A DNA stretch of 29,900 bases from Candidatus Liptonbacteria bacterium RIFOXYD1_FULL_36_11 (GTDB lineage Bacteria > Patescibacteriota > Minisyncoccia > UBA6257 > XYB1-36-10): the NCBI GenBank assembly GCA_001821375.1, contig MHLG01000017.1:1-29900 (forward strand). The letters are read 5' to 3'. The notes beneath the pieces are model-generated. The model saw nothing but the letters and a program-made list of their open reading frames with translations, made no database searches and was not told where the DNA came from. Made by a program: the position numbers and the translations under genes. Below are positions 3,354 to 29,900 of the stretch, in pieces; the stretch's first letter is position 1; every line of letters starts with the position of its first letter.

Positions 3354-3950
3354 CTATTTCTTTTCTTTTCCACCTTGTCTTATTATCTCATCTACTAAAT
3401 TATATTTTTTTGCTTCTTCGGCGGTTAAATAAAAATCTCTATCCGTATCCCTTTCAATCTTTGAAATTGGCTGACTGGTATGTTTAGCTAAAATTTCATT
3501 CAGTTTTTGTTTTATCTTTAATATCTGCTTAGCTGTTATTTCTATTTCTGTTGCTTGCCCTTCCACCCCCCCCATTATTTGGTGTAGTAATATTTCAGCG
3601 TTTGGGAGCGACATTCTTTTTCCCTTTTTCCCCGCCGCAAGTAACACCGCCGCCATAGAAGCCGCCATTCCTACGCATACCGTGGAGACATCAGGCTTTA
3701 TAAACTGCATTGTGTCATAAATTGCCAGTCCTGCCGTCACTGACCCGCCCGGGCTGTTTATATAAATTTTTATATCTTTTTTAGGATCTTCGTGTTCAAG
3801 AAAAATTAGCTGGGCTATTACGGTATTTGCCATAGAATCATTAATCGGACCCCCTAAAAACACTATTCTTTCTTTAAGTAAACGCGAATAAATATCATAG
3901 GCTCTTTCCCCATACTGTGATTTTTCTATTACTGTTGGTATTAAATTCAT
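3354..3950 (-). CDS. clpP: ATP-dependent Clp protease proteolytic subunit
   Basis: [30 protein letters not shown] (catalytic Ser), LHQ, DRD. Confidence 0.98.
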
Positions 3951-4000
3951 AATTTTATTTTAATTAAAAACTTTTTTAAATTCAAATCTCTTTAAATTTT

Positions 4001-4033
4001 ACCCCGTTAAACTGATTTTTATTTAACTGGGGT
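4001..4033. repeat. 33-bp REP-like hairpin (family D)
   Basis: ACCCCGTTAAA...TTTAAC(T)GGGGT; homologous copy at 21332-21364. Confidence 0.75.
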
Positions 4034-5044
4034 TTATTCCTGCTCCTCTAAAAACTTAAAAACCTTCTCATTCTTTATTTTACCGAAAGTATAGTCATAT
4101 AATTTTTCCGTGTTTATATTTTTTCTCTCTGCTGGGCTTGTTTGCGTTAAAATTTTACTGGCTTCTTCTTTTATTTCTTCTTCTGAAATCTCAATATTTT
4201 CTTTTTTATAAACTGCGTCTATAACTAAATGCGCTCTTATTTCTTTTTCAGCTTTTTCTTTCAATCTTTCATCAAGTTTTTCTTCTTTTTCATAATATTT
4301 CTTTATATACTCTTCAAAACTTATTTTTCCTCCCTCAAGACTCTTTTTTAAATCACTCTTCATTCCCTCTCTCATCTTTTCCACCATAACTTCCGGTATT
4401 TCTATTTTTGCCTTTTTTAATATCTCATCAATTATTTTTGCTCTGTTTTTATCGCCTTCTCTTACTATTTTTTCCGCCCGTAAGCCTTCTTTTATGCTTT
4501 TTTTTAAATCTCCCACTGTTTTAAAATCTCCCATACTCTTTACTATTTCATCCGTCAACTCTTTTTCTTTCTCTAACCCCCTTGCTTCAATTAGCCACTC
4601 TATCGCTTTTTTTATCTCCTCTTCTTCCACTGTTATTTTTTTTATTTTTTCTTTTACCTCCTCATTTGCTCTCTTGGCAATTATTTTATAATCAGGAAGC
4701 TCTACTTCTGGAAATAAAGTCAGTTCCGCTTTAAAACTTAATCCTTCTTTATCTTCCTCAAATTTTACTTTTGGTGAATCTATTAAAATCCATCCATTTT
4801 CTTCTCCTACTTTTTTTAAGCTATCCTTTACCGCCTTTTCCGCCGCCTCGTTAAATATTTTTTCTTGGCTAATAAAATCTTTAGCTATTTCTTCCGGTGC
4901 CTGTCCTATTCTAAACCCTTTTATCTGCAATTTTTCTTTTTCTTTTATAAAAACCTCCTCTATATATTTTTCAAGCTCCTCTTTTTCTATTTTTACGGAT
5001 AGAGCAACCAACCCATTTGTTTTTTTTTCAAAACTCGTTTTCAT
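4034..5044 (-). CDS. tig: Trigger factor lacking the FKBP/PPIase domain
   Basis: KGFRIGQAP ribosome-binding signature, FPEVELPDYK, C-domain IEIPEVMVE; 336 aa; upstream of clpP. Confidence 0.88.
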   Translation of the reverse strand: MKTSFEKKTNGLVALSVKIEKEELEKYIEEVFIKEKEKLQIKGFRIGQAPEEIAKDFISQEKIFNEAAEKAVKDSLKKVGEENGWILIDSPKVKFEEDKEGLSFKAELTLFPEVELPDYKIIAKRANEEVKEKIKKITVEEEEIKKAIEWLIEARGLEKEKELTDEIVKSMGDFKTVGDLKKSIKEGLRAEKIVREGDKNRAKIIDEILKKAKIEIPEVMVEKMREGMKSDLKKSLEGGKISFEEYIKKYYEKEEKLDERLKEKAEKEIRAHLVIDAVYKKENIEISEEEIKEEASKILTQTSPAERKNINTEKLYDYTFGKIKNEKVFKFLEEQE

Positions 5045-5112
5045 AAGTCTTTTTATTTACTACTTTAAATTAGCGCTTTAATATCTAAAAAATTTAACTT
5101 AATTTTTATATG

Positions 5113-5253
5113 GACTGTCGCCAAATACGCCTGTGGTGAACTTATTAAATCCACTTTCGTTACAAAATTTATAAAATTATCCCGATTCTGCGAAGCAGAA
5201 TCAAGGATCCTCTATAAAATCAGGACAGTAAAAATAGTATTTGGCGATATGTC
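5113..5253. mobile_element. MITE-like element with imperfect terminal inverted repeats
   Basis: TCGCCAAATAC (5118-5128) and GTATTTGGCGA (5237-5247) are an 11-bp perfect inverted repeat; internal hairpin GATTCTGC-GAA-GCAGAATC (5184-5202). Confidence 0.45.
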
Positions 5254-5254
5254 T

Positions 5255-7264
5255 TTATAAGTATCTTGCTATTAAAAGTGCCACTATGCTCATTACCTTA
5301 ATTAACGGGTTTATAGCTGGCCCAGCAGTGTCTTTATACGGATCCCCTACCATATCTCCTGTTACCGCCGCTTTATGCGCTGGAGACCCCTTTCCTCCAA
5401 AATATCCTCCTTCTATATACTTCTTTGCGTTGTCCCAAGCCGCCCCTCCCGAGGTCATGGAAAGAGCCATAAAAAGACCGGAAACTATCGCTCCTATTAA
5501 AAATCCTCCCAGAGCTATTGGTCCTAAAAGAAACCCAACCAACATTACTGCAAAGAGCGGTGTAAGTGCTGGTATTATCATTTCTTTTATTGCCGCCTTT
5601 GTTACAATATCCACCGCTTTTTCATAATCTGGCTTTGCTTTATATTCCATTATCCCTTCTATTTCTCTAAACTGCCTTCTTACTTCTTCCACTACCGCTC
5701 CCGCCGCTTTTCCTACCGACTTCATTGAAAGAGAACTAAAAAAATAAGGCACTGCCGCTCCTAAAAATAATCCAGAAATCACGTAAGGGTCTTGTAATCC
5801 AAAGGCCGTATTTTTAGCAAACTTTAAAAGTTCTTCTAAATATACTGAAAAGAGTACTAAAGCCGCTAGTCCTGCTGAAGCTATAGCATATCCTTTAGTC
5901 ACCGCCTTTGTTGTATTACCAACAGCGTCAAGCGCATCTGTCACTTTACGCACGTCTTCTTCTGCTTCAGACATTTCTGCTATTCCTCCCGCGTTATCTG
6001 TAATTGGTCCAAACGAATCTATGGAAATTATAATACCTGCCACCGAAAGCATTCCTACTGCCGCTATGGCAATTCCATACATTCCAGCCAATGAAAAACT
6101 TATAAGCATCCCGGCGCAAATTACTATAATCGGTAAAACTGTTGCTTCCATTCCCACCGAAAGTCCCATAATAATATTTGTTCCATGTCCGGAGTTAGAA
6201 GCCTCCGCAATGCTTTTAACCGGCCTGAATTTTTTTGATGTATAGTAATCGGTTAATATAACCATTAAAATAGTTACCACTAATCCGACCACTGAAGAAT
6301 AAAAAAGATTTAAATAATTATTTGGAAAAAAAGCGCGCGCGGCAATATAAAATAATATTACTGAAATAATTAACGAACTCCATAATCCTTTATAAAGCGC
6401 CCCCATTATTTTTGTCGGGGAAAGCTGGTCTCCTTTTTTTCCTAACTTAACAAAAAATGTTCCTATTATTGAAGCTATTATTGCCAGCCCTCCTAAAACT
6501 AACGGAAACAAAGAATGAGCATTTGTTGATTCTCCGCCAAAATAAGCCATTCCTAAAAGTATAGCCGCTGTTAAAGTGACTGCGTAAGTTTCAAATAAAT
6601 CCGCCGCCATTCCGGCGCAGTCCCCTACATTATCTCCTACGTTATCCGCTATCACTGCTGGATTTCTTGGATCATCCTCCGGAATGTTTGCTTCTAATTT
6701 TCCTACAAGGTCCGCTCCTACATCTGCCGCTTTTGTAAAAATACCTCCGCCTAATCTTGCAAAAACAGAAATTAAACTTGCTCCAAAACCAAGCCCGATT
6801 AAAATCTCAACATTATATGTAGTTAAGTAAAAAGAAGCTACTACTAGTAATGCCAAAGCCACTACTAAAAATCCTGTTACTGACCCTGCCTTAAAAGCCA
6901 ATCCTAAAGCTTTCTGTGTTCCCTCTCTTGCTGCTTCCGCTGTTTTTGCGTTTGCTCTTACTGCCACATTCATTCCAATAAATCCTGCGAGCGCTGATGA
7001 TATTGCCCCCGCCGCAAATCCCATCGCTACCGGTAATTTTAAAAAGTACCAGATTAAAAGAAATAAAAATATTGCTACTACCGCTATCGTTTTATATTGT
7101 CTTGAAAGATAAGCCTTTGAACCTAAAAGTATCGCTTTTGAAATTTGGTTCATTCTTTCATTTCCTTTCGGTTGTTTTTTTATCCAAAGAACTAAAAACA
7201 AACTGTAAATAAGCGCTAAAGCTATTGGCGCGTAAATTAAAATTTTTATTAATCCTATACTCAT
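5255..7264 (-). CDS. hppA: Membrane-bound H+-translocating pyrophosphatase, K+-independent type
   Basis: [73 protein letters not shown]. Confidence 0.95.
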
Positions 7265-7296
7265 TTTTTATTTTAATTTTATTTTTTAATTAATTT

Positions 7297-8496
7297 TTAT
7301 TTTATTTCTTCTTCCTTTTTTACCGTCTCTTCTATTATTACACCCTCTGCTTTTCCTCCTTCTATTTCTTCTTCCGGCTTTCTTTCCGATCTCACGTCTA
7401 TTTTCCATCCGGTTAATTTTGCCGCCAGTCTCACATTTTGCCCCCCTCTTCCAATAGCTAAACTTAACTGATCTTCCGGCACAAACACTCTCGCCTCTCT
7501 TCTCCCCCCCATCTCAATTCTTGAAACTTTAGCTGGCGAAATAGAATTAGCTACATATTTTTCCGGATCTTCCGACCACTCTATAATATCTAATTTTTCT
7601 TGTCCCACTTCATTATTTACTGCCATCACCCTCGTCCCTCTCTGCCCGACAAAACTTCCCACTGCATCTATATTTTCATCTTTTGAATGCACTGCTATTT
7701 TTGTCCTGCTTCCCGCTTCTCTTGCTATTGCTTTTATTTCCACCGTCCCTTCTGCTATCTCTGGCACTTCTGTCTCAAAAAGTTTACTGATAAATTTTGG
7801 GTGAATTCTAGACAATACTACATTTGCTCCTTTTGAATCATTTTGCACTGTCTCTACATAAAACTTTAATCTTTCTCCTATCCTATAATGTTCACCTTGT
7901 ACTGACTCGCCGCCGAACATTATCCCCTCTGCTCTTCCCAAATCTACAAACACATTTCCCCTTTCAAATCTTCTCACTACTCCGCTTACTATCATCCCCT
8001 CCCTATCTTTGTATTCATTGATAATAGAATCCCTCTCAATCTCTCTTAATTTTTGTAATATGTTTTGCTTTGCTGTTTGAGCGGCTATTCTTCCAAAATC
8101 TTCCTCCGGTACTGGTAATGGAAAAATTATCTCTTCTTCAAGCTCTGCATTTTCTTTTATTTTTTTTGCCTCTTCCAAAAGAATATGTTTTTCCGGATTA
8201 TATCTTGGCAGAACATCTTCTTCTTGTTGTAAAAAATCTTGCGCTACCGCTTCGCCCTCTTCCTCCTCTTCTATTATTCTTACCGTACTTTCGTCAACTA
8301 CTATTTTTGTCTGCCAAAAACTGGTGTTACCCGTCTCAAGGTCAAGCTTCGCTTTTACTACTCCCCCTCTCAACCCGTATTCTTTTTTATACGCCGCCGC
8401 TAAAGAAGCTTCCACCGCTTCTAAAACTTTATTTTTATCTATCTTCTTTTCTTCGGCTATCTGTCCGATAGCTTTTGCTAATTCTTTTAAATTCAT
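7297..8496 (-). CDS. nusA: Transcription termination factor NusA (ATG at 8496 preferred over TTG at 8514)
   Basis: FGRIAAQTAKQ, S1 domain, IAREAGSRTKIAV, GQRGTRV, LSLAIGRGGQNVRLAAKLTGWKIDV. Confidence 0.97.
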   Translation of the reverse strand: MNLKELAKAIGQIAEEKKIDKNKVLEAVEASLAAAYKKEYGLRGGVVKAKLDLETGNTSFWQTKIVVDESTVRIIEEEEEGEAVAQDFLQQEEDVLPRYNPEKHILLEEAKKIKENAELEEEIIFPLPVPEEDFGRIAAQTAKQNILQKLREIERDSIINEYKDREGMIVSGVVRRFERGNVFVDLGRAEGIMFGGESVQGEHYRIGERLKFYVETVQNDSKGANVVLSRIHPKFISKLFETEVPEIAEGTVEIKAIAREAGSRTKIAVHSKDENIDAVGSFVGQRGTRVMAVNNEVGQEKLDIIEWSEDPEKYVANSISPAKVSRIEMGGRREARVFVPEDQLSLAIGRGGQNVRLAAKLTGWKIDVRSERKPEEEIEGGKAEGVIIEETVKKEEEIK

Positions 8497-13432: not shown

Positions 13433-14779
13433 TTATAACACATCTTCTTCTTTCTCTTTAGGAATTTCCGCTTCTATTGCAAACTCATCCATTATTTTTA
13501 CTTTTAAAGCCGCTGAATTTTCTTCATCGCCGTGCGTTATAAAAACTTTTCTTAATGTTCTCGTCATTGGTTTTAACCAAGCTAAAAGCTCTTCTTGGTC
13601 GGCGTGCGCCGAATATCCGCTAATGCTTTGTCTTTTACAATTTACCTCCACTTCTTTTCCGTATATCTCTACTTTTTCTGCTCCTTCTTGAATTTTTCTT
13701 CCTAAAGTTTCTTTTCCCTGATAAGAAACAAATAATATCCCATTTTTTTTGTCGCTTAAATAATTAAGCTCGTGCCTTAAAATTCTTCCCCCCTGCGACA
13801 TTCCCGAACCGGCAATTATTATTTTTGGCCCTTTCTTTTTTTCTATCTCTCGCGACTCTTCACTTGAAAGTGTTGTTTCTAATCCTGGAAAATTAAATAT
13901 TTCATCTCCCGTTCTTATTTCTTTTCCTACGTCTATTCTAAAAAATCCTTGATATTTTTTATAAATTGTCGTCAGTTTTATCGCTAACGGGCTATCCATA
14001 TATATCGGCACTCTTGGTATTCTCCCATTACTCACCAGCTCGTTTAACTCTACTAAAAGCTCTTGCGTTCTTTCCATGGCAAATGCCGGAATAAGCAATG
14101 TCCCGCCACCGTTTATCACTTCTTCTATAAAATCTTCCAGTAAATCCCTTCTTTTTTCAGCATCCTCGTGTATCCGGTTTCCATAAGTTGATTCTATAAG
14201 CGCGTAATCAGCTTCTTCAATCTCATCCGCTACTGGCATAATGGAATTATGTAAATTTCCCAAGTCTCCGGAAAATACAATACTTTTTCCCTCCGCTGTT
14301 ACTTTTATGCAAGCTGAACCTAAAATATGCCCGGCGTTAAAAAATTCTACGGAAAATTTCCCTAGCTGAAAAACTTTTTTATACTCAACTTTTTCCCAAA
14401 GGTCCATCAGCGCGTTTATATCTTTTGTTTCGTAAATTGGCTTCTCTCTTCTTTTTTCCGCTTCTTTTCTTAATATGTCTTCCGAGTCTAAAAGTAAAAG
14501 CTCTGTAAAATCTCGCGTTGGCGCCGTGGAAAAAATTTTATTGCGAAATCCCTCTTTATAAAGTTTTGGTAAAAGCCCGGTATGGTCTATGTGGGCGTGT
14601 GTTATTAAAACCGCTTTTATTTCCTTGGCGTCATAGGGTAGGGGAGTAAAATTTTTCTTTTCGCAGTAACTTTCTCCTTGTTCCATTCCGCAGTCTATAA
14701 GAATTTTTTCTCCGCCGGTCTCCAGTATAAAACTTGACCCGGAAACATTTTTTACTCCTCCTAAAAAAATTATTTTCAT
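13433..14779 (-). CDS. Metallo-beta-lactamase/beta-CASP ribonuclease (YSH1-like)
   Basis: THAHIDH, AGHILGS, FSGDLG, ESTYG, SAHAD, THGD motifs all present. Confidence 0.92.
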   Translation of the reverse strand: MKIIFLGGVKNVSGSSFILETGGEKILIDCGMEQGESYCEKKNFTPLPYDAKEIKAVLITHAHIDHTGLLPKLYKEGFRNKIFSTAPTRDFTELLLLDSEDILRKEAEKRREKPIYETKDINALMDLWEKVEYKKVFQLGKFSVEFFNAGHILGSACIKVTAEGKSIVFSGDLGNLHNSIMPVADEIEEADYALIESTYGNRIHEDAEKRRDLLEDFIEEVINGGGTLLIPAFAMERTQELLVELNELVSNGRIPRVPIYMDSPLAIKLTTIYKKYQGFFRIDVGKEIRTGDEIFNFPGLETTLSSEESREIEKKKGPKIIIAGSGMSQGGRILRHELNYLSDKKNGILFVSYQGKETLGRKIQEGAEKVEIYGKEVEVNCKRQSISGYSAHADQEELLAWLKPMTRTLRKVFITHGDEENSAALKVKIMDEFAIEAEIPKEKEEDVL

Positions 14780-14842
14780 GCCTTCTATTATACCTCAAAA
14801 TCAGCTCTCTTGATAAACACTGCCTTTTTTCTCCCGAAGTTT

Positions 14843-14953
14843 ACCCCGTGAAATCTATCCTATATTTCACCGGGGGTTATACCCCTACCTACCCTGCCTA
14901 CCGGCAGGCAGGCCGTGTATTTTTTCTATTTCACTGGGGTTTCCCGTGAAACA
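14843..14953. repeat. REP mosaic: family D hairpin, family C palindrome CCTGCCTACCGGCAGGCAGG, family D half-site with a degenerate parS
   Basis: 14843-14877, 14893-14912, 14927-14953; GGTTTCCCGTGAAACA at 14938-14953. Confidence 0.7.
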
Positions 14954-14984
14954 TTTACCACTTTCTAACTTTTTAAGTAATGTA

Positions 14985-15013
14985 TTGACACAACTTATAA
15001 TATATGCCATAAT
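14985..15013 (+). promoter_or_regulatory. Strong sigma70 promoter TTGACA-17-CATAAT with extended -10 (TG)
   Basis: Direct consensus match upstream of the ORFan cassette. Confidence 0.75.
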
Positions 15014-15051
15014 TCCAGCGTAAAATTGAACATTAAAAACTACATATTTTC

Positions 15052-15230
15052 TGTTTCTGCGTAGCTTTGAGTTGATTATTTTTAGTCATCTCTAAGCTAT
15101 GCGGGAACATTCGGTCTACTCGCGTAACTCATGGTTTTTTATGACGCCGTTATAAGGCGATTGAAATAAAAAGACCAAAAGGCCGCGTGCGGCCTCAAAA
15201 AAATTAATCGCCAAAAACAGCGAGAGGAGA
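15052..15230 (+). ncRNA. Putative structured leader or ncRNA of unknown family
   Basis: 25-bp hairpin at 15052-15109 with plus-strand-specific G.U pairs, a multibranch domain at 15113-15176, and a hairpin at 15180-15195. Confidence 0.5.
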
Positions 15231-15236
15231 AATGCA

Positions 15237-16082
15237 ATGTTTCAAGAGATAGGGGATTATTTTTTGAACATTTCAAGAAAGCTGGTGGAAAAATTAGAAT
15301 ATCACCAGCCGCAGTATTTTAAGTTTAAAAGTAATGTTGAAAAAAATGCCTCTTTCTTTGTAAAAGAAGAGGAAGGAAACAAATTTCCTTTAGTTTTTAA
15401 GGTTCGTCCAAAAAAAAGGAGGCAAATGGGTCCAAATTGTCTTCCTCAACCTAGTGATGTATTCCATGTATTTCTGAAATTTGAGAAAAAGGAGAGTTTT
15501 ACCGATGCTAACACCAACAGGGAATGCGAATCAAGAAATCGTCGGATAGTTTATATTTATCCGCATGAACCGCAGGGAAGAAGTAAGAAAAAAATTATTT
15601 CACGAGGAAGGCTTTGTTTCCAAGATTTAGGAAATTTAGACAGAGAATGTATAATTTTGCCAAAACCTCCTTTTATGGAGCATTTAAATGGAACACACAG
15701 ACGTGGATGTTTATGGATAGCGGAAGCAGAGCAAGGGTATAATTTACATATCTGTAAACGTGAAGATGAAGTTTTAAATAATGAGATAGTAAAAGTTTTT
15801 TTGGAGAGGGCAAAAAAAACACAATTTTTCGACGCAATGAGAATAGAATTGCCTGGCGTTACGAAACAGAGAGAAGATGAAGAAACTATTTGCTGTTATG
15901 ATAAAAGGCGAGATGATTCTCCTGTGGCACGAGTTAGGTATGTCCGCCGTGATTTAATAAAGGAAAGCGACGGCGTAAAAGTAAAAAGCTTTAGATTTTT
16001 TGAATTAAATAGTATTGATAATTCCATTAATACAAATACAATAAGATTCAAATTAACTGAAAAAGGGCTTGAAAAAATTTAA
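15237..16082 (+). CDS. Hypothetical protein (ORFan, 281 aa)
   Basis: Long ORF with GAGGAG SD 7 nt upstream, its own promoter and terminator; no family recognised. Confidence 0.75.
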   Translation: MFQEIGDYFLNISRKLVEKLEYHQPQYFKFKSNVEKNASFFVKEEEGNKFPLVFKVRPKKRRQMGPNCLPQPSDVFHVFLKFEKKESFTDANTNRECESRNRRIVYIYPHEPQGRSKKKIISRGRLCFQDLGNLDRECIILPKPPFMEHLNGTHRRGCLWIAEAEQGYNLHICKREDEVLNNEIVKVFLERAKKTQFFDAMRIELPGVTKQREDEETICCYDKRRDDSPVARVRYVRRDLIKESDGVKVKSFRFFELNSIDNSINTNTIRFKLTEKGLEKI

Positions 16083-16116
16083 AGCTCATTAAATAGACCT
16101 TAAAAATGTATTCTAT

Positions 16117-16143
16117 GCCCCTGTGATATTTACAGGGGCTTTT
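16117..16143 (+). terminator. Intrinsic terminator after the ORFan
   Basis: GCCCCTGT-gatattt-ACAGGGGC followed by TTTT. Confidence 0.8.
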
Positions 16144-16717
16144 ATTTTTTCGCTATGTTTTTTAAAGCCTCTTTCAACCTGCTCTCAAATTCTTTTATCT
16201 TCGGGTCTAACTCGCTTATTGCTTCTTTAACTTGGCTTCTATTATATCCTAAAGACATCAGTGCCTCTTCAATACTTGCGTCCGATTCCATCTTCTTTAC
16301 TCCCTCCATTGCTCCTTTTACTATTATTTTTCCTTTTAGCTCTAAAATCGCTCTCTCCGCTGTCTTCTTTCCTATCCCCGAAACTCTTGTTAAAAGTTCC
16401 GGTCTTCCTTCATTTATTGCCGATACTAAATTTTCTACTGTGGAAATGTTTAACATTGCGAGCGCTGTCTTTGGTCCTATTCCTGACACCGTTAATAATT
16501 TTTCAAAAACTTCCAACTCAAAAATTGAAATAAATCCGTATAAATCTAGACTATCTTCCTTTACTGATAAATGGCAAAAAAATTTTACTTCTTCTCCGCT
16601 TCTCGCCTCTTTTTTTGAATTTTCCGAGGTAAAAATTTTATATCCTATTCCGCCTGCGTCCACTACGCAGAATCCCGGCTCTTTTCCCTCCACTTTTCCT
16701 TTTATGTAATAAAACAT
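16142..16717 (-). CDS. ruvA: Holliday junction branch migration protein RuvA
   Basis: GGIGYKI, LYGF, LLTVSGIGPKTAL, VSGIGKKTAERAILEL, EEALMSLGY. Confidence 0.97.
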   Translation of the reverse strand: MFYYIKGKVEGKEPGFCVVDAGGIGYKIFTSENSKKEARSGEEVKFFCHLSVKEDSLDLYGFISIFELEVFEKLLTVSGIGPKTALAMLNISTVENLVSAINEGRPELLTRVSGIGKKTAERAILELKGKIIVKGAMEGVKKMESDASIEEALMSLGYNRSQVKEAISELDPKIKEFESRLKEALKNIAKK

Positions 16718-17016: not shown

Positions 17017-17044
17017 AAAAAACCCGCCTAAACAGCGGGTTTTA
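17017..17044. terminator. Bidirectional terminator overlapping the last ftsH codons
   Basis: AAAACCCGC-ctaaaca-GCGGGTTTT; ftsH TAG lies in the loop. Confidence 0.75.
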
Positions 17045-20000
17045 TTTTGCTAAAAATTTTATCTTTAGCAATATTTGTGTTTATCTTTATCCCGAATTTT
17101 TTTACTATTTCATAAAACTCATCCTGCTCTAAAATCTCTTTTTCTAAAAGCGTTTCCGCTACTTTATCTAAAGCCTTTCTTTTTTCTTTCATAATTTTCA
17201 TTGCCTTATTTAAAGCGTCGTTTATTAACATTGCTACTTCGCTGTCTATATTTTTTGCCACTTCTTCCGAATAATGCTTTCCCGTCATAATCTCTCTTCC
17301 TAAAAATATTGACTCGTCTCCATCTCCAACCGCTACCGGCCCCATTTTTTCACCCATTCCATATCTTGTCACCAAACTTCTTGCTAAATCATAAGCAACC
17401 CTCAGATCATTTGATGCTCCGGTTGTCACATCTTTAAAAACTGTTTTTTCGGCTGCGTATCCTCCCATCATCATTACAAGATCGGCTAAAAACTGTGCCC
17501 GGCTTTTTAATCTTCTGTCTTCTAGTGGAAGTTTCAAGGTGTATCCTCCCGCCATGCCGCGTGAAACTATGGAAATTTTATGCACCGGATCCGCCTCCGG
17601 CAAAACCGCCGCTCCGAGCGCATGCCCCGCTTCATGATAAGCTATTATTTTTCTTTCCTTGTCTGTTATTGTTAAGCTTCTTCTTTCCGGCCCTAAAATT
17701 ACCTTTTCCACTGAATCAAAAATATTTTGCAAAGTTATCTCTTTCTGTCCGTTTATTGCCGCGAGTATTGCCGCCTCATTCATTAAATTTGCCAGATCTG
17801 CCCCGGAAAAACCCGGCGTTCGCACTGCCACTTTTCTTAAATCAATACTATTTGCGAGTTTTTTATCCTTGGCGTGTATTTTTAATATTTCCTCTCTTTC
17901 ATTTATATCTGGCAAATCTAAAATTATCCGTCGGTCAAATCTTCCCGGTCGGAGGAGCGCTGGATCTAAGACATCGGGTCTGTTTGTAGCCGCGAGTATT
18001 ATTACTCTTGTGTTTCCTTCAAACCCGTCCATCTCTACCAGTATCTGATTTAAAGTCTGCTCTCTTTCGTCGTGTCCGCCACCAAGTCCCGCTCCTCTTT
18101 GCCTTCCTACCGCGTCTATTTCATCAATAAACAAAATAGAAGGAGCTGCTTTCTTTGCTATATCAAACGCATCGCGCGTGCGGCTGGCTCCTACTCCAAC
18201 AAACATTTCTACAAACTCCGAAGCGGACATATAAAAAAACGGCACCCCGGCTTCTCCTGCTACTGCTCGGGCGATTAGCGTATTATGGCTGACTATTCCA
18301 TTCGCTGTAAAAGAATGATTTTCTGGCACAGTGAAGTCGTAAACTTTTTCTTTCCCCTCGCTAATAGCCATTACTGGAGAAAAAAACAAATTTGCAGCTA
18401 ACAGCGACTTTAAATACTCCCCGGCTTTTGAATAAACTCCGCTTTTTTCATATTCTCCTACTAAAAACTTTAAGGAATTTCTTGAAATGCGTCCTCTCGT
18501 CTTAATTTTATTCATTATCTTTGATAATTTTTCTGTGCTTTTTCTAGCAGATTGTATATCTTGAAAACACCTTCCCATTGTATTGTTTGCATAAGGCAGC
18601 ACATCTACATTAGTGTTTCCCGTATTATGAGTAGATAAATAATTTTCCATTTTTTCTTGTTTTCTTTTAAGTCGAAAACCAATTTGATTAACAAACGGAA
18701 CTAAAGAAGTTCCAGAAACAAAAATCTCATAAACCGGATTCTTATGTTTTTTATCATTCCCGCTTTTTATTCTTCTTCCTGGCACTATCCCCATATTTAA
18801 AAGTAATGCTATCACCTGATTTGAAAGCGTCTTACTGACCGTGGCATATCCAAAAGTATATCGCTCAAAATATCCATCCGTGTCAAATAATCCCTGTAAA
18901 AAAGCCACCACCACTTCTTTTGGCGCCATCATAATAGAAGGAGGGATTGTCTTATCATAAGACAAAAGATAAGACATTCCTGAATAATACAAATCTTTTT
19001 TTACTTTCCAAGATGAAACCACGCTTGTTATTCCATCGCTTCCCATCCTCAAAGACACTTCCGGATATTGTTCAGAAATATACGAAGCAAAACAATATCT
19101 CAACTCTTCGTCAGTGGTCGTAAAACCAACTCTGTTTGAATGGCTTAAATTTCCGTCTCCTGTTAAAAGTCCCATTATATACGCTTCCTCTACACTTACT
19201 TCTCTTAAATTCCCAAACTGCTTATTATTAAATTTCACTGCTACTAAATCTCCCTCCTTTAAATCAGAAAGTTTTTTCCACTTTAAACAGCCATCTTTTT
19301 CCATCACTGCTATCGGATGCTCTGGCGTTCCTTCAAGCTCCATACCCTGCTTGAGAAAAATTTTCACCGTTTGTTGTTCTCCTAAATCATACCAATGGGA
19401 AGCCTTGCTCTCTTTAGCTTGGGCAGTCTTAAGGTTTATTGACAACACTGAAGCTCCTTCTACCTCTCCCGTTTCCTGATTTACAAAAAAATACTTTGGC
19501 ACATCCTTAATCGGTATTACCCCTTTGTTTGTTGTTACCAATGTTTCTCCCGTTACGCATTTCCCTGTCCCCGGTGATCCTACTAATAAAACCCCTCTCG
19601 GAATTTTTGCTCCTAAATCTGTAAACTTTTTTGGATTTTTTAAAAAATCCACTACTTCCTTAAGTTCTTGTTTTGCTTCCTTTAATCCTGCCACATCCCC
19701 AAAAGTCGTCTTATTTTTTTGCTGGTTGAATGATTTTAAATTTGATTGCCCGAAAGAAAAAGCTTGGTTCATCCCACTCTTCGCGTTCCGAAACATCAGC
19801 CAAAAAATTACCGCTATGGCAATAATCGGCAACATCGTCGGAATTAAAATACTTGCCCAAAAACTAAACCCGCTTTCTTCTTTAATCTCAAAAATCACCT
19901 CCTTTAATTTTTCCTGTGGCACCCCGTAATTTTTTAATGTTTCACTTAGTCCTGCTTCCGTTTCCTTCTTTGACCAGTATTCCTTACCGTCTCGCATTAC

Positions 20001-20183
20001 TATTTTTAAATCATTTCCGCTTACAGAAACACTTTTTACTTCTTCGGTCGTTATCCTTTCCGCTAGTTGATCAAGAGTAATAATCTCTTTTTTTCCCAAC
20101 ATATCCGTCGTTCCTGAAAAAGTTAAAGCCAAAAGCAAAAAAACAGCGAACGCCCACGCCAAATTTTTCAAAAGTAATTTCAT
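17028..20183 (-). CDS. ftsH: ATP-dependent zinc metalloprotease FtsH containing an intein (about 625 aa after splicing)
   Basis: 2 TM segments, TFGDVAG, GSPGTGK|intein|[27 protein letters not shown] motif, HEAGH zinc site. Confidence 0.97.
18282..19559 (-). mobile_element. 426-aa intein with LAGLIDADG homing endonuclease
   Basis: Cys1 (CVTGETLV), block B TPEH, GLLTGDG and GLFDTDG, block F VYDFTV, terminal SHN, Thr+1. Confidence 0.96.
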
Positions 20184-26741: not shown

Positions 26742-28034
26742 ATGTCCAACTCTCGCCTCGCTATAATTTCTCTTTCTATTGTTTTAATTGTTTCTCTTTT
26801 TGGCGCCTTTTATTTTTTCCGCCGCGCCGACTTAGGCGCTAAAACTCCTCTTACTTTTTGGGGTGTCTACGACGACGCAGAATCTTTCTCTAGCGCTATT
26901 GCCGGCTTTCAAAAACTCTACCCGAACATCTCCGTAAATTATGTAAAAAAAGACGAGACTACCTATGAATCCGATCTTTTAAATGCTCTTGCTTTAGATG
27001 AAGCTCCAGACATTATAATGATTCATAATTCCTGGCTTCCTAAATATGCCAACAAACTTGCTTCCGCTCCCGACACCGCTGTTTCTATAAAAACTCTCCG
27101 CGACTCTTTCCCTGGAGTAGTAGAACAAGACTTTACCGCCAGCGGCAAAATTTTTGCTCTTCCTCTTAATCTTGATACTCTTGCTCTTTTCTACAACAAA
27201 AAACTTTTTAACTCGCAAAATATTGCTTTCCCGCCTGCCACTTGGGATGAGTTTTCTGACGATTCCGCAAAGCTTAAAAAAATAAACCAAGCGGGGAAAA
27301 TTGAACGCGCCGGCGCCGCTTTTGGCGGTTCCGCCGATAGCATCAATCGTGAAAGCGATATTTTAAGTCTTTTAATGCTTCAAAGCGGCGCCGCTATGGT
27401 AAAAGATGATTTCTCCGAAGCGAGCTTTTTCCACTCCGGAGAAAACGGCCAATATCCCGGCCAAAACGCTTTAAATTTTTATGTCAGTTTTGCTAATCCC
27501 AAATCTTCCAACTACACCTGGAACGACAATCTTCATTATTCCATTGACGCTTTTAGCGAAGGCTCTGCGGCAATGATGATAAATTACTCTCATAAGATAA
27601 ATGAAGTAAAAACAAAAAATCCTTTTCTTGATTTTGGCGTTGCCCCGGTTCCTCAATTAAAAGGCGCTGACATTCAGGTAAATTATCCTGATTACTGGGG
27701 CGCGGCAGTTCTTTCAAAATCAAAAAATACTTCCGCTTCCTGGACTTTTACTTCTTATCTTTCTCTTAATTTAGACGCGGCTAATTCTTATTTTCAAACC
27801 ACAAAAAGACCGCCGGCTTTAAGAAGCCTTATCTCTTCTTGTCAAAACGATCCGGATATCGGCTCTTTCTGTTCCCAATCTCTCTCCGCTCGCTCTTGGC
27901 CTAAGATTGATAATAATAAAATAGATATCATTTTTTCCGATATGATAAAATCAATCTTAAGTGGAAAACTTTCTTCTTCCGACGCTCTTCGTCAAGCCGA
28001 AGATAATGTTACTCTTCTTATGAAACAATTATAA
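26742..28034 (+). CDS. Extracellular solute-binding protein (family 1, sugar-type), N-terminally anchored
   Basis: LTFWGVYD, APDIIMIHNSW, FALPLNLDTLALFYNKKLF, PPATWDEF, FSEGSAAMMI, DFGVAPVPQ. Confidence 0.88.
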   Translation: MSNSRLAIISLSIVLIVSLFGAFYFFRRADLGAKTPLTFWGVYDDAESFSSAIAGFQKLYPNISVNYVKKDETTYESDLLNALALDEAPDIIMIHNSWLPKYANKLASAPDTAVSIKTLRDSFPGVVEQDFTASGKIFALPLNLDTLALFYNKKLFNSQNIAFPPATWDEFSDDSAKLKKINQAGKIERAGAAFGGSADSINRESDILSLLMLQSGAAMVKDDFSEASFFHSGENGQYPGQNALNFYVSFANPKSSNYTWNDNLHYSIDAFSEGSAAMMINYSHKINEVKTKNPFLDFGVAPVPQLKGADIQVNYPDYWGAAVLSKSKNTSASWTFTSYLSLNLDAANSYFQTTKRPPALRSLISSCQNDPDIGSFCSQSLSARSWPKIDNNKIDIIFSDMIKSILSGKLSSSDALRQAEDNVTLLMKQL

Positions 28035-28126: not shown

Positions 28127-29056
28127 ATGTTTTTTAAAAAAAATAATTTTATTGCCTTTTTTATTTTTTCTTTTATTTTTCTTTCTTTATTTTTTCCGGT
28201 TTTTTCCCTTGCCGCCGGTCTTTCCGGTCCTTTGGTAATCTGTGCCGACATAAATAACTGTAATTTTTGCGACCTTCTCCAAACTGCAAAAAACATTCTT
28301 GATTTCAGTATTCAACTTGCCTTTATTCTTGTCGTCGCCTACACCGTCTGGGGCGGCCTGCAAATTATGGTCTCCGGCGCTTTTGAAAGTCTTTATTCCA
28401 AAGGTAAAAAACTTATCACTAACGCCGCCATCGGCTTGGTTATTATTCTCGTCTCCTGGGTTTTTGTTGACCAACTGATTAGAGTAATGGTCGGTGGCAG
28501 TATTTTTCAAGGAAACTTCTCTGGCTGGGTCTGGAATGAAATTCCTTGCGATCTCAACAAAGTAGACCTCCCAGCTATAAGTAATTCTGGAAGCGGGACT
28601 GTTACTCCTGGTGGCGGAGGGTTTTCTGGTGGTCAAGAGTTGTGCAATAATCCCGCAAAACTTGCTGAAAAATATGGCGTTCCTTATCCGGTAAAAAACT
28701 CTTTTGATATTGACGCTATAATTGGTTGTGTTAATGGCTCGCTGAATAAAATGATAGACCAAAATCAAATATACACTTCTGATCGTGACCATCCTTTATG
28801 TAATTACACCAGAGGAGAAAAAATTTGTGGGGATTGCTCTCATAAAGTCTATTCTTGCCATTATGGAGGAATGGCAGGTCACATGGGAGTTCTCGCCGTT
28901 GACTTCAACGCCGCTGTTGGTATATCCGAGTCAAAACTCAATGACGAAATAAACAAAATTGCTCGAGCAGGCGATTGTGGAATAAGTATCTCAAACGTCA
29001 TATTTGAAGACGACCACACCCACATTAGCGCCCCTTCCTGTAACAGTAAATATTAA
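28127..29056 (+). CDS. CPR VirB2/TrbC-like pilin fused to a Cys-rich M15/LAS-like metallopeptidase domain
   Basis: Pilin part: LVIC..CNFCDL, WGGLQIM, KGKKLITNAAIGLVIILVSW; C-terminal SCHYGG, H-x6-D (HMGVLAVD), EDDHTH. Confidence 0.75.
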   Translation: MFFKKNNFIAFFIFSFIFLSLFFPVFSLAAGLSGPLVICADINNCNFCDLLQTAKNILDFSIQLAFILVVAYTVWGGLQIMVSGAFESLYSKGKKLITNAAIGLVIILVSWVFVDQLIRVMVGGSIFQGNFSGWVWNEIPCDLNKVDLPAISNSGSGTVTPGGGGFSGGQELCNNPAKLAEKYGVPYPVKNSFDIDAIIGCVNGSLNKMIDQNQIYTSDRDHPLCNYTRGEKICGDCSHKVYSCHYGGMAGHMGVLAVDFNAAVGISESKLNDEINKIARAGDCGISISNVIFEDDHTHISAPSCNSKY

Positions 29057-29481: not shown

Positions 29482-29900
29482 ATGTCATTTTTTCTCTCAA
29501 AAATTTTTTTAATAAATACCGCCCTCGCAGATGGAACCAGCAGTTCCATCACCATCTCTAATCCCCTCGGTTCTATCTCCACCATTCCCGGTTTAATAAA
29601 TAAAATAATAGATTTTCTCGCCACTTTAGGCATCCCTGTAGTTACTCTTCTTGTTATTTATGGCGGATGGCAAATATTGATCGCCGGCGGCAACGAAACT
29701 AATTTTACTAAAGGAAAAAACACTATAACTTACGCCGCTCTCGGTTACGGTATAGTTCTTATTGCTAAAGGCGTTTCAGGCTTAGTTGAATATATGCTGA
29801 CTGGAAGCACCACCCAAGCTACAATTGACGTCGGTGGTATTATATCCCGTTCTGCTAACTGGCTGTTAGGCTTAATGTTAGCTCTTTCTGTTATTATGGC
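29482..29900 (+). CDS. Tandem-domain CPR pilin, runs off the window (missing from the ORF track)
   Basis: Hand translation MSFFLSKIFLINTALADG...ISNPLG...INKIIDFL...IYGGWQILIAGGNETNFTKGKNTITYAALG...; a second pilin-like helix starts IDVGGIISRSANWLLG; TGcTATAAT lies 7 nt upstream. Confidence 0.85.
   Translation, partial: MSFFLSKIFLINTALADGTSSSITISNPLGSISTIPGLINKIIDFLATLGIPVVTLLVIYGGWQILIAGGNETNFTKGKNTITYAALGYGIVLIAKGVSGLVEYMLTGSTTQATIDVGGIISRSANWLLGLMLALSVIM

Follow-up and report, generated by a model that had tools for sequence, protein, structure and literature searches.

A VirB2-like pilin with a predicted Hedgehog/DD-peptidase-fold domain at the head of a Patescibacteria pilin array

The window analyzed here is a stretch of 29,900 nucleotides from an ultra-small groundwater Patescibacteria cell, and its three genes described below (the SBP, fusion, and second pilin genes) lie on the forward strand. 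An open reading frame at 28127..29056 encodes a protein of 309 aa plus stop, a fusion that is the lead pilin of a four-gene pilin array and carries a LAS-like domain. Upstream, at 26742..28034, is the gene for a membrane-anchored, carbohydrate-type solute-binding protein (SBP) of 430 aa (Pfam SBP_bac_8, 3e-26; SBP_bac_1, 2e-25). Downstream, a second pilin gene matching PF18895 (1.1e-7) runs from 29482 to the contig end at 29900, where it is cut; in other assemblies its product has 192 aa. A first-pass annotation of this DNA had placed the fusion gene in a cluster with the SBP and a tandem pilin, and both neighbors are indeed there. The second pilin is complete in four loci (L009-L012), where genes for two further pilins, of 112 and 127 aa, come after it; in the genome of the window these two genes sit on contig C26. 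The tandem array consists of four divergent pilins of 309, 192, 112, and 127 aa, located near the replication origin, and the fusion gene occupies a conserved chromosomal spot beside gyrA. The identical fusion protein was found on 23 public contigs, with the 192-, 112-, and 127-aa pilins downstream. The SBP is the only one found in the 94%-complete genome, and a search of the same genome for a BPD_transp_1 ABC permease returned none; the SBP is thus regarded as an orphan.

Read from its N-terminus, the 309-aa protein has a signal peptide and then a pilin hairpin of two helices, VirB2-like in type; a disordered Gly/Ser linker leads on to a Cys/His-rich domain of 140 aa. The signal peptide (residues 1 to ~29; 28127..28213) was identified by hydropathy, with a KK n-region and a hydrophobic core, and appears as helix 5-31 in the full-length AlphaFold model; signal peptidase would be expected to cut between SLA and AG. 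The pilin hairpin (residues 47-122; 28265..28492) is formed by two long hydrophobic helices, 47-82 and 87-122 (pLDDT 88-97 in the full-length model), which are separated by the short basic loop SKGKK. Pfam T4SS_pilin (PF18895) matches residues 53-115 with 33.5 bits against a cut-off of 26.6, and with 36 bits in a six-frame search of the genome, so that the N-terminal VirB2-like type IV secretion system (T4SS) pilin proposed at first pass was confirmed. The layout of T4SS_pilin proteins, a signal peptide followed by two hydrophobic helices with a short cytoplasmic loop, is present in the fusion protein by hydropathy and in the full-length model. Because the interhelix loop is basic, an out-in-out topology of the hairpin fits, and the modeled protein accordingly has its C-terminal domain facing the outside. 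A flexible linker (residues 123-169; 28493..28633; pLDDT 44-61) joins the two, and includes at residues 152-169 the Gly/Ser/Pro stretch SNSGSGTVTPGGGGFSGG, also noted at first pass. It is modeled as disorder, with pLDDT below 50 over residues 145-165 and a pLDDT of 59 for the opening 10 residues of the separate domain model. The remaining residues, 170-309 (28634..29053), form a predicted extracytoplasmic LAS-fold (Hedgehog/DD-peptidase-like) domain with eight conserved Cys, as judged from AlphaFold, VIA-align, neighbors in AFDB, BFVD, and the ESM Atlas, and conservation.

Homologs of this domain formed 202 clusters at E<=1e-3, and 144 at the stricter threshold of E<=1e-10. Within the records searched the family was found in Patescibacteria only, mostly fused to the pilin module: PF18895 was detected on 95 of 136 family proteins, and the N-termini were homologous to the pilin module in 109 of 152. 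A second N-terminal class in the family has a cytoplasmic charged region and one transmembrane helix, an arrangement that again places the domain outside. The distribution across the phylum is patchy, with the family present in 11 of 401 sampled genomes.

The AlphaFold model of the isolated domain (pLDDT 93.4, pTM 0.86) has four strands packed by two long helices. The LAS fold is an alpha/beta sandwich with a central antiparallel sheet, common to VldE, Hedgehog, DD-peptidase, and VanX/VanY. When the model was compared with solved structures using VIA-align, the highest Z scores were those of VldE (7.2 and 7.1), followed by Hedgehog proteins (6.0-6.5), ChiX (5.6), and the Streptomyces albus DD-peptidase (5.4). 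The 35 best re-aligned PDB chains were all LAS proteins (Z 5.4-7.1); VldE and the Hedgehog proteins superimposed over 83-98 residues at an rmsd of 2.6-3.1 Å, and the first non-LAS fold in the re-aligned list had a Z of 5.1. A wide search independent of Foldseek gave top matches that include VldE, ShhN, Hh, DacB, 1lbu, Ply500, LysB4, VanXYg, VanY, the T5 endolysin, and VanX, and the neighbors of the domain in AFDB, BFVD, and the ESM Atlas were mainly M15A, M15_3, MepK, VldE, and Hedgehog proteins. A LAS fold (Hedgehog/DD-peptidase, M15-like) is therefore the high-confidence prediction for the domain, which is the outcome of the structural check that the first-pass annotation had called for. Z scores below 8 can reflect a common arrangement, and the LAS scores are moderate and not decisive alone; the Foldseek E of ~0.1 for the domain neighbors and the middling maximum Z of 7.2 count against reading the domain as a LAS peptidase. 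A likeness to the HAD cap or trehalose-phosphatase was rejected, as these matches had Z no higher than 5.1, lacked shared motifs, and ranked under every LAS match. A chance open reading frame or motif was also rejected because the family is conserved and the fold is confident.

By sequence, the assignment to M15 made at first pass did not hold. The domain matched no Pfam family at E<=10 and no NCBIfam model, and it had no match among PDB sequences either with phmmer from the single sequence or with a profile. The single match in PHROGs was phrog_14093 (E 0.03), of unknown function. An hhalign comparison with the Peptidase_M15_3 alignment gave a probability of 6.7% and was used for collinearity only. 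That no M15, M23, or Hedgehog family model matched the domain significantly likewise counts against a LAS peptidase.

Conservation was scored over 154 aligned domains of 30-50% identity. C237, H239, S243, C244, H245, Y246, G247, D259, H297, and H299 are all retained, each in 95% or more of them. The candidate first metal motif, S243-C-H245-Y-G-G ... A257-V-D259 (28853..28903), is supported by this conservation (S243 and H245 in 151 domains each, D259 in 148) and by low-stringency hhalign, which aligns S243/H245 to the SxH of Peptidase_M15_3 and D259 to its D across a 7-residue gap. It corresponds to the SxHxxG...AxD signature of M15 and Hedgehog proteins split by 7 extra residues, and D259 lies within a strand, 257-262, in the AlphaFold models. 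LAS proteins have a second motif in their last strand, H-x-H (or E-x-x-H), which is present here as H297-T-H299 (29015..29023; strand 298-301 in the full-length model), with H297 in 150 domains and H299 in 147. Counting back from the aligned C-terminal ends, H299 is the equivalent of Shh H183 and VldE H375, and H297 that of H181 and H373. In VldE, H301, D308, and H375 bind Zn and are needed for activity (PMC11667670). From the conserved positions, H245, D259, and H299 are candidate Zn ligands, with H297 as the likely catalytic His. Together with a conserved Arg229, the SxH, D, and HxH residues make up the catalytic set of M15A/VldE-type enzymes in nearly every member.

The LAS/M15 hallmarks listed at first pass survive only in part. 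All seven residues (S243, H245, H252, D259, E294, H297, and H299) had been numbered correctly, and S243-x-H245, D259, and H297-x-H299 are conserved, but H252 is not, and E294 is Glu in 64 of 154 domains in the HMM alignment. Because most members have T or S in place of H252, the H252-x6-D259 element that had been taken for a canonical motif is a coincidence of one sequence. The conserved pair is H245...D259. The rule for LAS proteins is a first metal motif H-x(3-6)-D (SxHxxGxAxD in M15), whereas H245 and D259 are 13 residues apart, a departure that counts against a LAS peptidase. The wide spacing is attributed to a Cys-rich loop insert at residues 225-244 (28799..28858), C225-N-Y-T-R-G ... C234-x2-C237-x-H239-x4-C244, whose listed residues are each kept in at least 142 of the 154 domains. 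The gap in M15_3 faces this loop in the hhalign comparison, and residues 68-97 of the domain model are without helix or strand at a pLDDT above 95. The loop may be held by disulfides or may form a second, structural metal site. An analysis of Cys co-loss hinted only at a C201-C284 pairing (three joint losses), and no VKOR homolog was found in the genome. We consider the domain, on the strength of the models, a predicted unnamed and divergent branch of the Hedgehog/DD-peptidase fold, set apart by its unusual His-Asp spacing and by the Cys-rich insert.

The best structural match is the C-terminal MT3 domain of VldE (Spr1875), an L,D-endopeptidase of Streptococcus pneumoniae (PDB 9flh/9flm; PF26571; PMC11667670), which superimposed with a Z of 7.1-7.2 and an rmsd of 2.6-2.7 Å over 81-83 residues. 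The two domains have in common the LAS fold, an HxH motif placed in the last strand, and a His/Asp pair ahead of it. VldE is a small wall hydrolase that is likewise extracellular and held by a long disordered linker. VldE alone has the canonical H301-x6-D308, a LysM anchor, and a zinc-zipper loop, whereas the pilin-fused domain shows H-x13-D, carries eight conserved Cys and two Cys-rich inserts, and is anchored by a pilin; identity between them is just 17-22%, without a sequence-level match. Among the top fold neighbors is also Peptidase_M15_3/M15A (PF08291; phage endolysins and MepK-type endopeptidases), with an ESM Atlas TM of 0.54/0.63. The low-stringency profile alignment with Peptidase_M15_3 is collinear over the N-terminal helix, SxH, D, and H, but the last motif of M15_3 is a single His, in contrast to HxH of the pilin-fused family, and PF08291 is rare in the phylum (2 of 151 genomes).

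The Hedgehog Z scores given above were obtained with the N-terminal signaling domain in many Shh, Ihh, Dhh, and fly Hh structures; the bacterial Hh/DD-peptidases (MEROPS M15A) are represented by the S. albus Zn D-Ala-D-Ala peptidase (PDB 1lbu). The Shh motifs SLHYEGRAVDI and HIHCS resemble SCHYGG...LAVDF and HTHIS of the pilin-fused domain. The latter differs from Hedgehog and M15A proteins in that its first motif is split by the 7-residue insert, there is no HMM-detectable similarity, and it is bacterial, pilin-fused, and Cys-rich. Hedgehog is a ligand whose peptidase role is debated, and it illustrates that a LAS fold with a metal site can serve binding and not catalysis, which counts against a peptidase here. 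The domain could accordingly be a non-catalytic, metal-stabilized binding head, making the pilin an adhesin for a host ligand (a peptide stem, glycan, or protein) in which the His/Asp metal would be structural or ligand-bridging, Hedgehog-style. We judge this unlikely, but deserving of some weight. It gains from the Hedgehog domains being among the closest structural neighbors, from a general base that is not fixed at E294, and from the non-canonical spacing and Cys-rich insert, which would reshape the cleft. Pairing with an SBP and the sequence divergence of pilin arrays, as described in PMC12102498, would suit host recognition too. Against it stand the retention of SxH, D, HxH, and Arg229 in nearly every member and the L,D-endopeptidase activity of the nearest neighbor, VldE. 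Catalytic residues usually drift in pseudo-enzymes.

Gene neighborhoods were compared for 74 family loci, all in records whose name or size marks them as Patescibacteria, collected in a search with a 24-row sub-alignment; many loci come from Saccharibacteria MAGs. In 24 of the 74, the gene immediately upstream is an SBP gene in the same orientation, and the same holds for L029, L030, and L035; pilins follow downstream in 21 of these 24 SBP loci and gyrA precedes in 17, as in the window. At 12 other loci of the 74, the family gene is within 2.5 kb downstream of TraC-like and VirB4 genes, and in L028 and L031 it comes immediately after VirB4. At one locus, L033, the gene adjoining the family member encodes the pilin module fused to a subtilisin (Peptidase_S8).

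In Gram-positive T4SS, according to PMC12102498, the membrane-anchored wall hydrolase is usually encoded beside VirB4, and a placement right after VirB4 in this hydrolase slot is a further argument against a head that only binds. The hydrolases of Gram-positive conjugation systems (PrgK, TraG of pIP501, CwlT, and TcpG; "VirB1-like") are also extracytoplasmic on an N-terminal membrane anchor, but they use lytic transglycosylase, CHAP, or NlpC/P60 domains, with no LAS domain and no pilin hairpin; conversely, none of the Pfam domains for lytic transglycosylase, CHAP, or NlpC/P60 was found in the fusion protein. The VirB1-like trait of adjacency to VirB4 is seen at the 12 loci and at L028 and L031, whereas the gene in the window is not beside VirB4. 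According to PMC12102498, most Patescibacteria with VirB2 homologs are without VirB1.

VirB4 was not detected in the genome of the window; two VirD4-like ATPases were the only ones found, and the fusion gene is not beside them. This and the patchiness of the family count against a secretion-linked peptidase. A search of RNA-seq runs found none containing the stretch. Further wall hydrolases, three of M23 type and one CHAP, are encoded in the genome, and two of them adjoin a VirD4-like gene. With these present, the fusion enzyme is not needed to fill a missing-hydrolase gap in its own genome, and that role was ruled out. Such a context raises the question of a housekeeping wall-remodeling peptidase, such as a carboxypeptidase or endopeptidase of L,D or D,D type serving growth or division, for which the hairpin would be a mere anchor with no pilus or secretion role. 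The lack of a detected VirB4, the conserved spot by gyrA near the origin, and the LdcB/DacB carboxypeptidases and MepK among the fold neighbors agree with this, and a 150-aa head on every subunit would not be expected to fit a homopolymeric pilus. We nonetheless hold it to be quite unlikely, since presence in only 11 of 401 genomes would be unexpected for such enzymes, family members nearly always sit in pilin arrays or VirB4 clusters, and the hairpin is a true PF18895 pilin by score, like the downstream pilins in other assemblies.

The reading that we favor, at slightly better than even, is a zinc peptidase anchored by its pilin module and serving a secretion pilus by cutting peptidoglycan peptides, as the lead subunit of a VirB2-like array. 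The fusion protein would be exported by Sec, and its pilin hairpin would insert with both ends outside, so that the ~45-residue linker would hold the compact, disulfide-rich LAS domain on the outward side of the membrane. Zn would be bound via H245, D259, and H299 with H297 as the catalytic His, and the domain would cleave a peptide bond in peptidoglycan stems or cross-links. Through the local gap so opened, a secretion pilus or channel may cross the wall of the cell itself and perhaps, at a contact site, that of the host. The orphan SBP encoded upstream may be a partner, for example by holding glycan strands. Zn binding, the ligand assignment, the peptidoglycan substrate, incorporation into a pilus, and the SBP role are all steps that we infer. 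The first-pass annotation had pointed to the host cell wall as the target; cutting of the own wall for machine assembly would fit the post-VirB4 placement at least as well. Proteins in place of peptidoglycan are a very improbable substrate, whether for maturing neighboring pilins or the SBP or for degrading host surface proteins. The Peptidase_S8 fusion at L033 would be in line with such a protease, but the named fold neighbors of known activity all cut wall peptides containing D-amino acids, and the data analyzed gave no sign of a protein substrate.

The pilin module itself is that of the Patescibacteria VirB2-like arrays (PF18895) reported by Wang et al. 2023 (PMC10633639) and Quinonero-Coronel et al. 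2025 (PMC12102498). The available sections of both papers deal with plain pilins and mention neither a peptidase head on a lead pilin nor a dedicated upstream SBP, and we found no publication describing a LAS-headed pilin system. A T4SS and pilin array is essential in the sole Patescibacterium tested genetically, according to PMC10633639. The role of Patescibacteria T4SS and pilins, and how a pilus would pass a Gram-positive-type wall, are not known, and a pilus of these pilins has been raised only as a possibility, with none shown even for plain pilins (PMC12857230). The present conserved family, restricted to Patescibacteria in the records searched, joins the pilin module to a LAS-type head and is placed at the head of arrays or right after VirB4. 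As it leads a row of pilins and follows an orphan SBP gene, the protein in the window is a testable candidate for an enzyme that takes a pilus through the cell wall. For the wall-cutting step that is missing, the LAS-headed pilin thus offers a specific candidate, whose 140-aa soluble domain can be expressed and assayed.

A bolder extension of the pilin-anchored peptidase, which we offer as doubtful, is that the SBP, the peptidase-headed lead pilin, and the plain pilins make up one wall-penetration module. Here, the lead pilin would prime assembly and would therefore sit at the tip of a VirB2-type pilus of a monoderm cell, where the zinc peptidase would cut cross-links through the cell's own wall into that of the host, and the SBP would grip glycan strands or capture fragments. 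If true, such an enzyme-tipped secretion pilus would be a first defined step in how Patescibacteria reach into their hosts. The analysis also flags the orphan sugar-binding protein as a fixed partner of pilin arrays, and the solved structures nearest to it are binders of maltose, acarbose, and oligosaccharides.

The open reading frame at 28127-29056 (forward strand) was confirmed and encodes a protein of 309 residues. The first-pass annotation, whose residue numbers were all correct, had described this protein as a pilin joined by a Gly/Ser linker to a putative peptidoglycan peptidase. The N-terminal pilin was recovered by Pfam as a match to PF18895 (T4SS_pilin) over residues 53-115, scoring 33.5 bits against a curated cut-off of 26.6, and hydropathy indicated a signal peptide followed by two strongly hydrophobic segments separated by a short basic loop. 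The full-length AlphaFold model (mean pLDDT 85) has helices at residues 5-31, 47-82, and 87-122, and the Gly/Ser linker lies inside a stretch modelled as disordered (residues 123-169, with pLDDT below 50 for 145-165). Residues 170-309 form a well-ordered C-terminal domain.

This C-terminal domain found no match in sequence searches of Pfam, NCBIfam, or PDB, and PHROGs offered one weak match (E 0.03), whose family has no known function. The domain was examined as a model built from an 82-sequence alignment (pLDDT 93.4, pTM 0.86), which contains four strands together with two long helices and a Cys-rich loop of 30 residues (model residues 68-97) that is confidently modelled without regular secondary structure. 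A Foldseek-independent scan of 48,161 PDB chains placed the C-terminal domain of VldE, an L,D-endopeptidase of S. pneumoniae, at the top (Z 7.2), followed by ShhN (6.3) and fly Hedgehog (6.2), then DacB/LdcB and the S. albus Zn DD-peptidase (both 5.4), with Ply500, LysB4, VanXYg, VanY, T5 endolysin, and VanX further down. Foldseek against PDB gave E-values only near 0.1; when its best 1000 chains were re-aligned to the model, the top 35 were all LAS proteins (Z 5.4-7.1), the first other fold being a HAD cap (Z 5.1), and VldE and the Hedgehog proteins superposed with an rmsd of 2.6-3.1 Å over 83-98 residues. Among AFDB clusters, the protein's own model and one uncharacterised protein came first, and most of those that followed were named "Peptidase M15A C-terminal domain" (E from 5e-3); neighbours in BFVD and ESM Atlas were M15_3 (TM 0.54/0.63), VldE, and MepK. 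Because these neighbours are consistent, and in view of the motifs, we read the predicted structure as a true, though divergent, LAS fold, as had been proposed, with scores that are moderate.

When 1.84 billion cluster representatives were searched exhaustively with phmmer, the domain matched 202 clusters at E ≤ 1e-3, 144 of them reaching E ≤ 1e-10. It is nearly always at the extreme C-terminus of proteins ranging from 83 to 1852 residues, and its distribution is patchy, with 11 of the 401 genomes sampled from the phylum encoding it; canonical Peptidase_M15_3 is even scarcer (2 of 151 genomes). Among 154 domains aligned by HMM (30-50% identity), cysteines 173, 201, 225, 234, 237, 244, 284, and 305 were each present in at least 141, as were T217, N226, T228, G230, H239, S243, H245, Y246, G247, G251, G254, D259, H297, and H299; R229 was conserved in 128. 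Of the motifs originally picked out as LAS/M15 hallmarks, S243-x-H245, D259, and H297-x-H299 were thus retained, but H252 and E294 were poorly conserved. Since position 252 is mostly Thr or Ser and position 294 is Glu in just 64 domains, the motifs "H252-x6-D259" and "E294-x2-H297" are in part chance features of this one sequence.

When residues are counted backward from the C-terminal ends of the structural alignments, H299 corresponds to Shh H183 and VldE H375, and H297 to H181 and H373, respectively. In VldE, zinc is bound by H301, D308, and H375, and activity requires H373 (PMC11667670). A low-stringency hhalign comparison with the Peptidase_M15_3 profile was statistically weak (6.7%) but collinear across the whole domain, placing S243/H245 on the SxH motif, followed by a 7-residue gap, D259 on the ligand Asp, and H299 on the ligand His. 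From the C-terminal counting and this pairing, the putative metal site likely comprises H245, D259, and H299, with H297 as the catalytic residue. The His-Asp spacing of 13 violates the classical LAS rule, H-x(3-6)-D. The insert stretch, C234-x2-C237-x-H239-x4-C244, might be linked by disulfides or bind a second metal in a structural role. With Hedgehog proteins among the closest structural neighbours, a rival reading is that the pilin carries a Hedgehog-like binding head.

The window is a complete 29.9-kb contig from a 0.6-Mb genome that is 94% complete, and its genes include dnaA, yidC, nusA, gyrA, and an intein-bearing ftsH (17028-20183). Its gyrA lacks an intein; in the closest relative, the gyrA upstream of the solute-binding protein and fusion genes (L029, 2733-6575; L030, 372-4214) has an intein with a LAGLIDADG endonuclease. 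A 281-residue ORF at 15237-16082, on the strand opposite to its neighbours, had no Pfam match. Longer contigs of other assemblies encoding the identical protein bore out the proposed clustering of the fusion with a solute-binding protein and tandem pilin, the full order being gyrA, solute-binding protein, fusion, and pilins of 192, 112, and 127 residues. The window ends within the second pilin gene of the array (29482-29900; 192 residues in other assemblies), and the third and fourth lie on contig C26 of the same genome (3989-4794), where their upstream genes differ from those in the examined loci L009-L012. This suggests either an assembly break at a repeat-rich spacer or strain variation. 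The solute-binding protein (26742-28034, forward strand) is of the maltose/oligosaccharide type. Because searches of the genome yielded no other such protein and no BPD_transp_1 permease (a family detected in 14 of 14 control genomes), it appears to be an orphan binding protein associated with the pilin array and not with a transporter.

Pattern scanning, with each species represented by one genome, retrieved 74 loci of relatives, nearly all from records whose titles name Patescibacteria lineages; other automatic labels are attached to a few. A pilin N-terminus was present in 65 of the 74 proteins, and PF18895 was matched in 95 of 136 family proteins. A second N-terminal class has a charged cytoplasmic region and one transmembrane helix, which likewise places the domain outside the membrane. 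A solute-binding protein of 410-467 residues is encoded directly upstream on the same strand in 24 loci, with pilins downstream in 21 of these and gyrA upstream in 17. In 12 of the 74, the family gene lies within 2.5 kb downstream of TraC-like and VirB4 genes, and VirB4 is immediately 5' of two further family members.

The best-supported reading is that the fusion is a pilin-anchored, extracytoplasmic, putative LAS-type zinc peptidase tied to the VirB2-like pilin system of Patescibacteria. The domain would most likely cut peptidoglycan peptides, allowing a pilus or channel to pass a wall, which may be the cell's own or the host's; a protease directed at proteins is a rival to this, as is a housekeeping wall peptidase for which the hairpin serves merely as an anchor. 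Gram-positive systems have a hydrolase slot after VirB4, which a wall-cutting role for the family fits, and such a role also agrees with the report that VirB1 is missing from most Patescibacteria having VirB2 homologues (PMC12102498). A simple "missing hydrolase" role in the genome of the window is counted against by the CHAP and M23 hydrolases that exist there, two adjoining a VirD4-like ATPase, and by the failure to detect VirB4 in this 94%-complete assembly. A 150-residue head on each pilus subunit seems sterically unlikely, and we infer that the protein more plausibly sits at the tip, serves as a minor subunit, or resides in the membrane. Neither a peptidase-headed lead pilin nor an upstream solute-binding protein is described in the papers on pilin arrays that were searched, and we class the protein as an undescribed fusion of two known parts, the fold and the pilin module, in which the metal motif is atypical.

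Elsewhere in the genome, contig C10 (locus L112, 2-9379) begins inside a gene for a VirD4/TraG-like ATPase, after which come genes for a Germane-domain protein, a PsbP-like protein, and two secreted enzymes, a CHAP hydrolase and an M23 peptidase of 1312 residues. The group may constitute a second wall-hydrolase cluster associated with secretion. Contig C29 also encodes a VirD4-like ATPase (14767-16422), behind a 442-residue membrane protein without a Pfam match. A fifth pilin-like gene (locus L006, contig C27, 30180-31247, minus strand) encodes 355 residues with a weak PF18895 match (23 bits) and, at the C-terminus, a long extension distinct from the LAS domain. Adjoining another family member (P0004, locus L033) is a gene for a 1611-residue protein (3379-8214) with a T4SS_pilin module and a Peptidase_S8 (subtilisin) domain, and approximately 2 kb downstream is a reverse transcriptase and bAvd pair, typical of diversity-generating retroelements.
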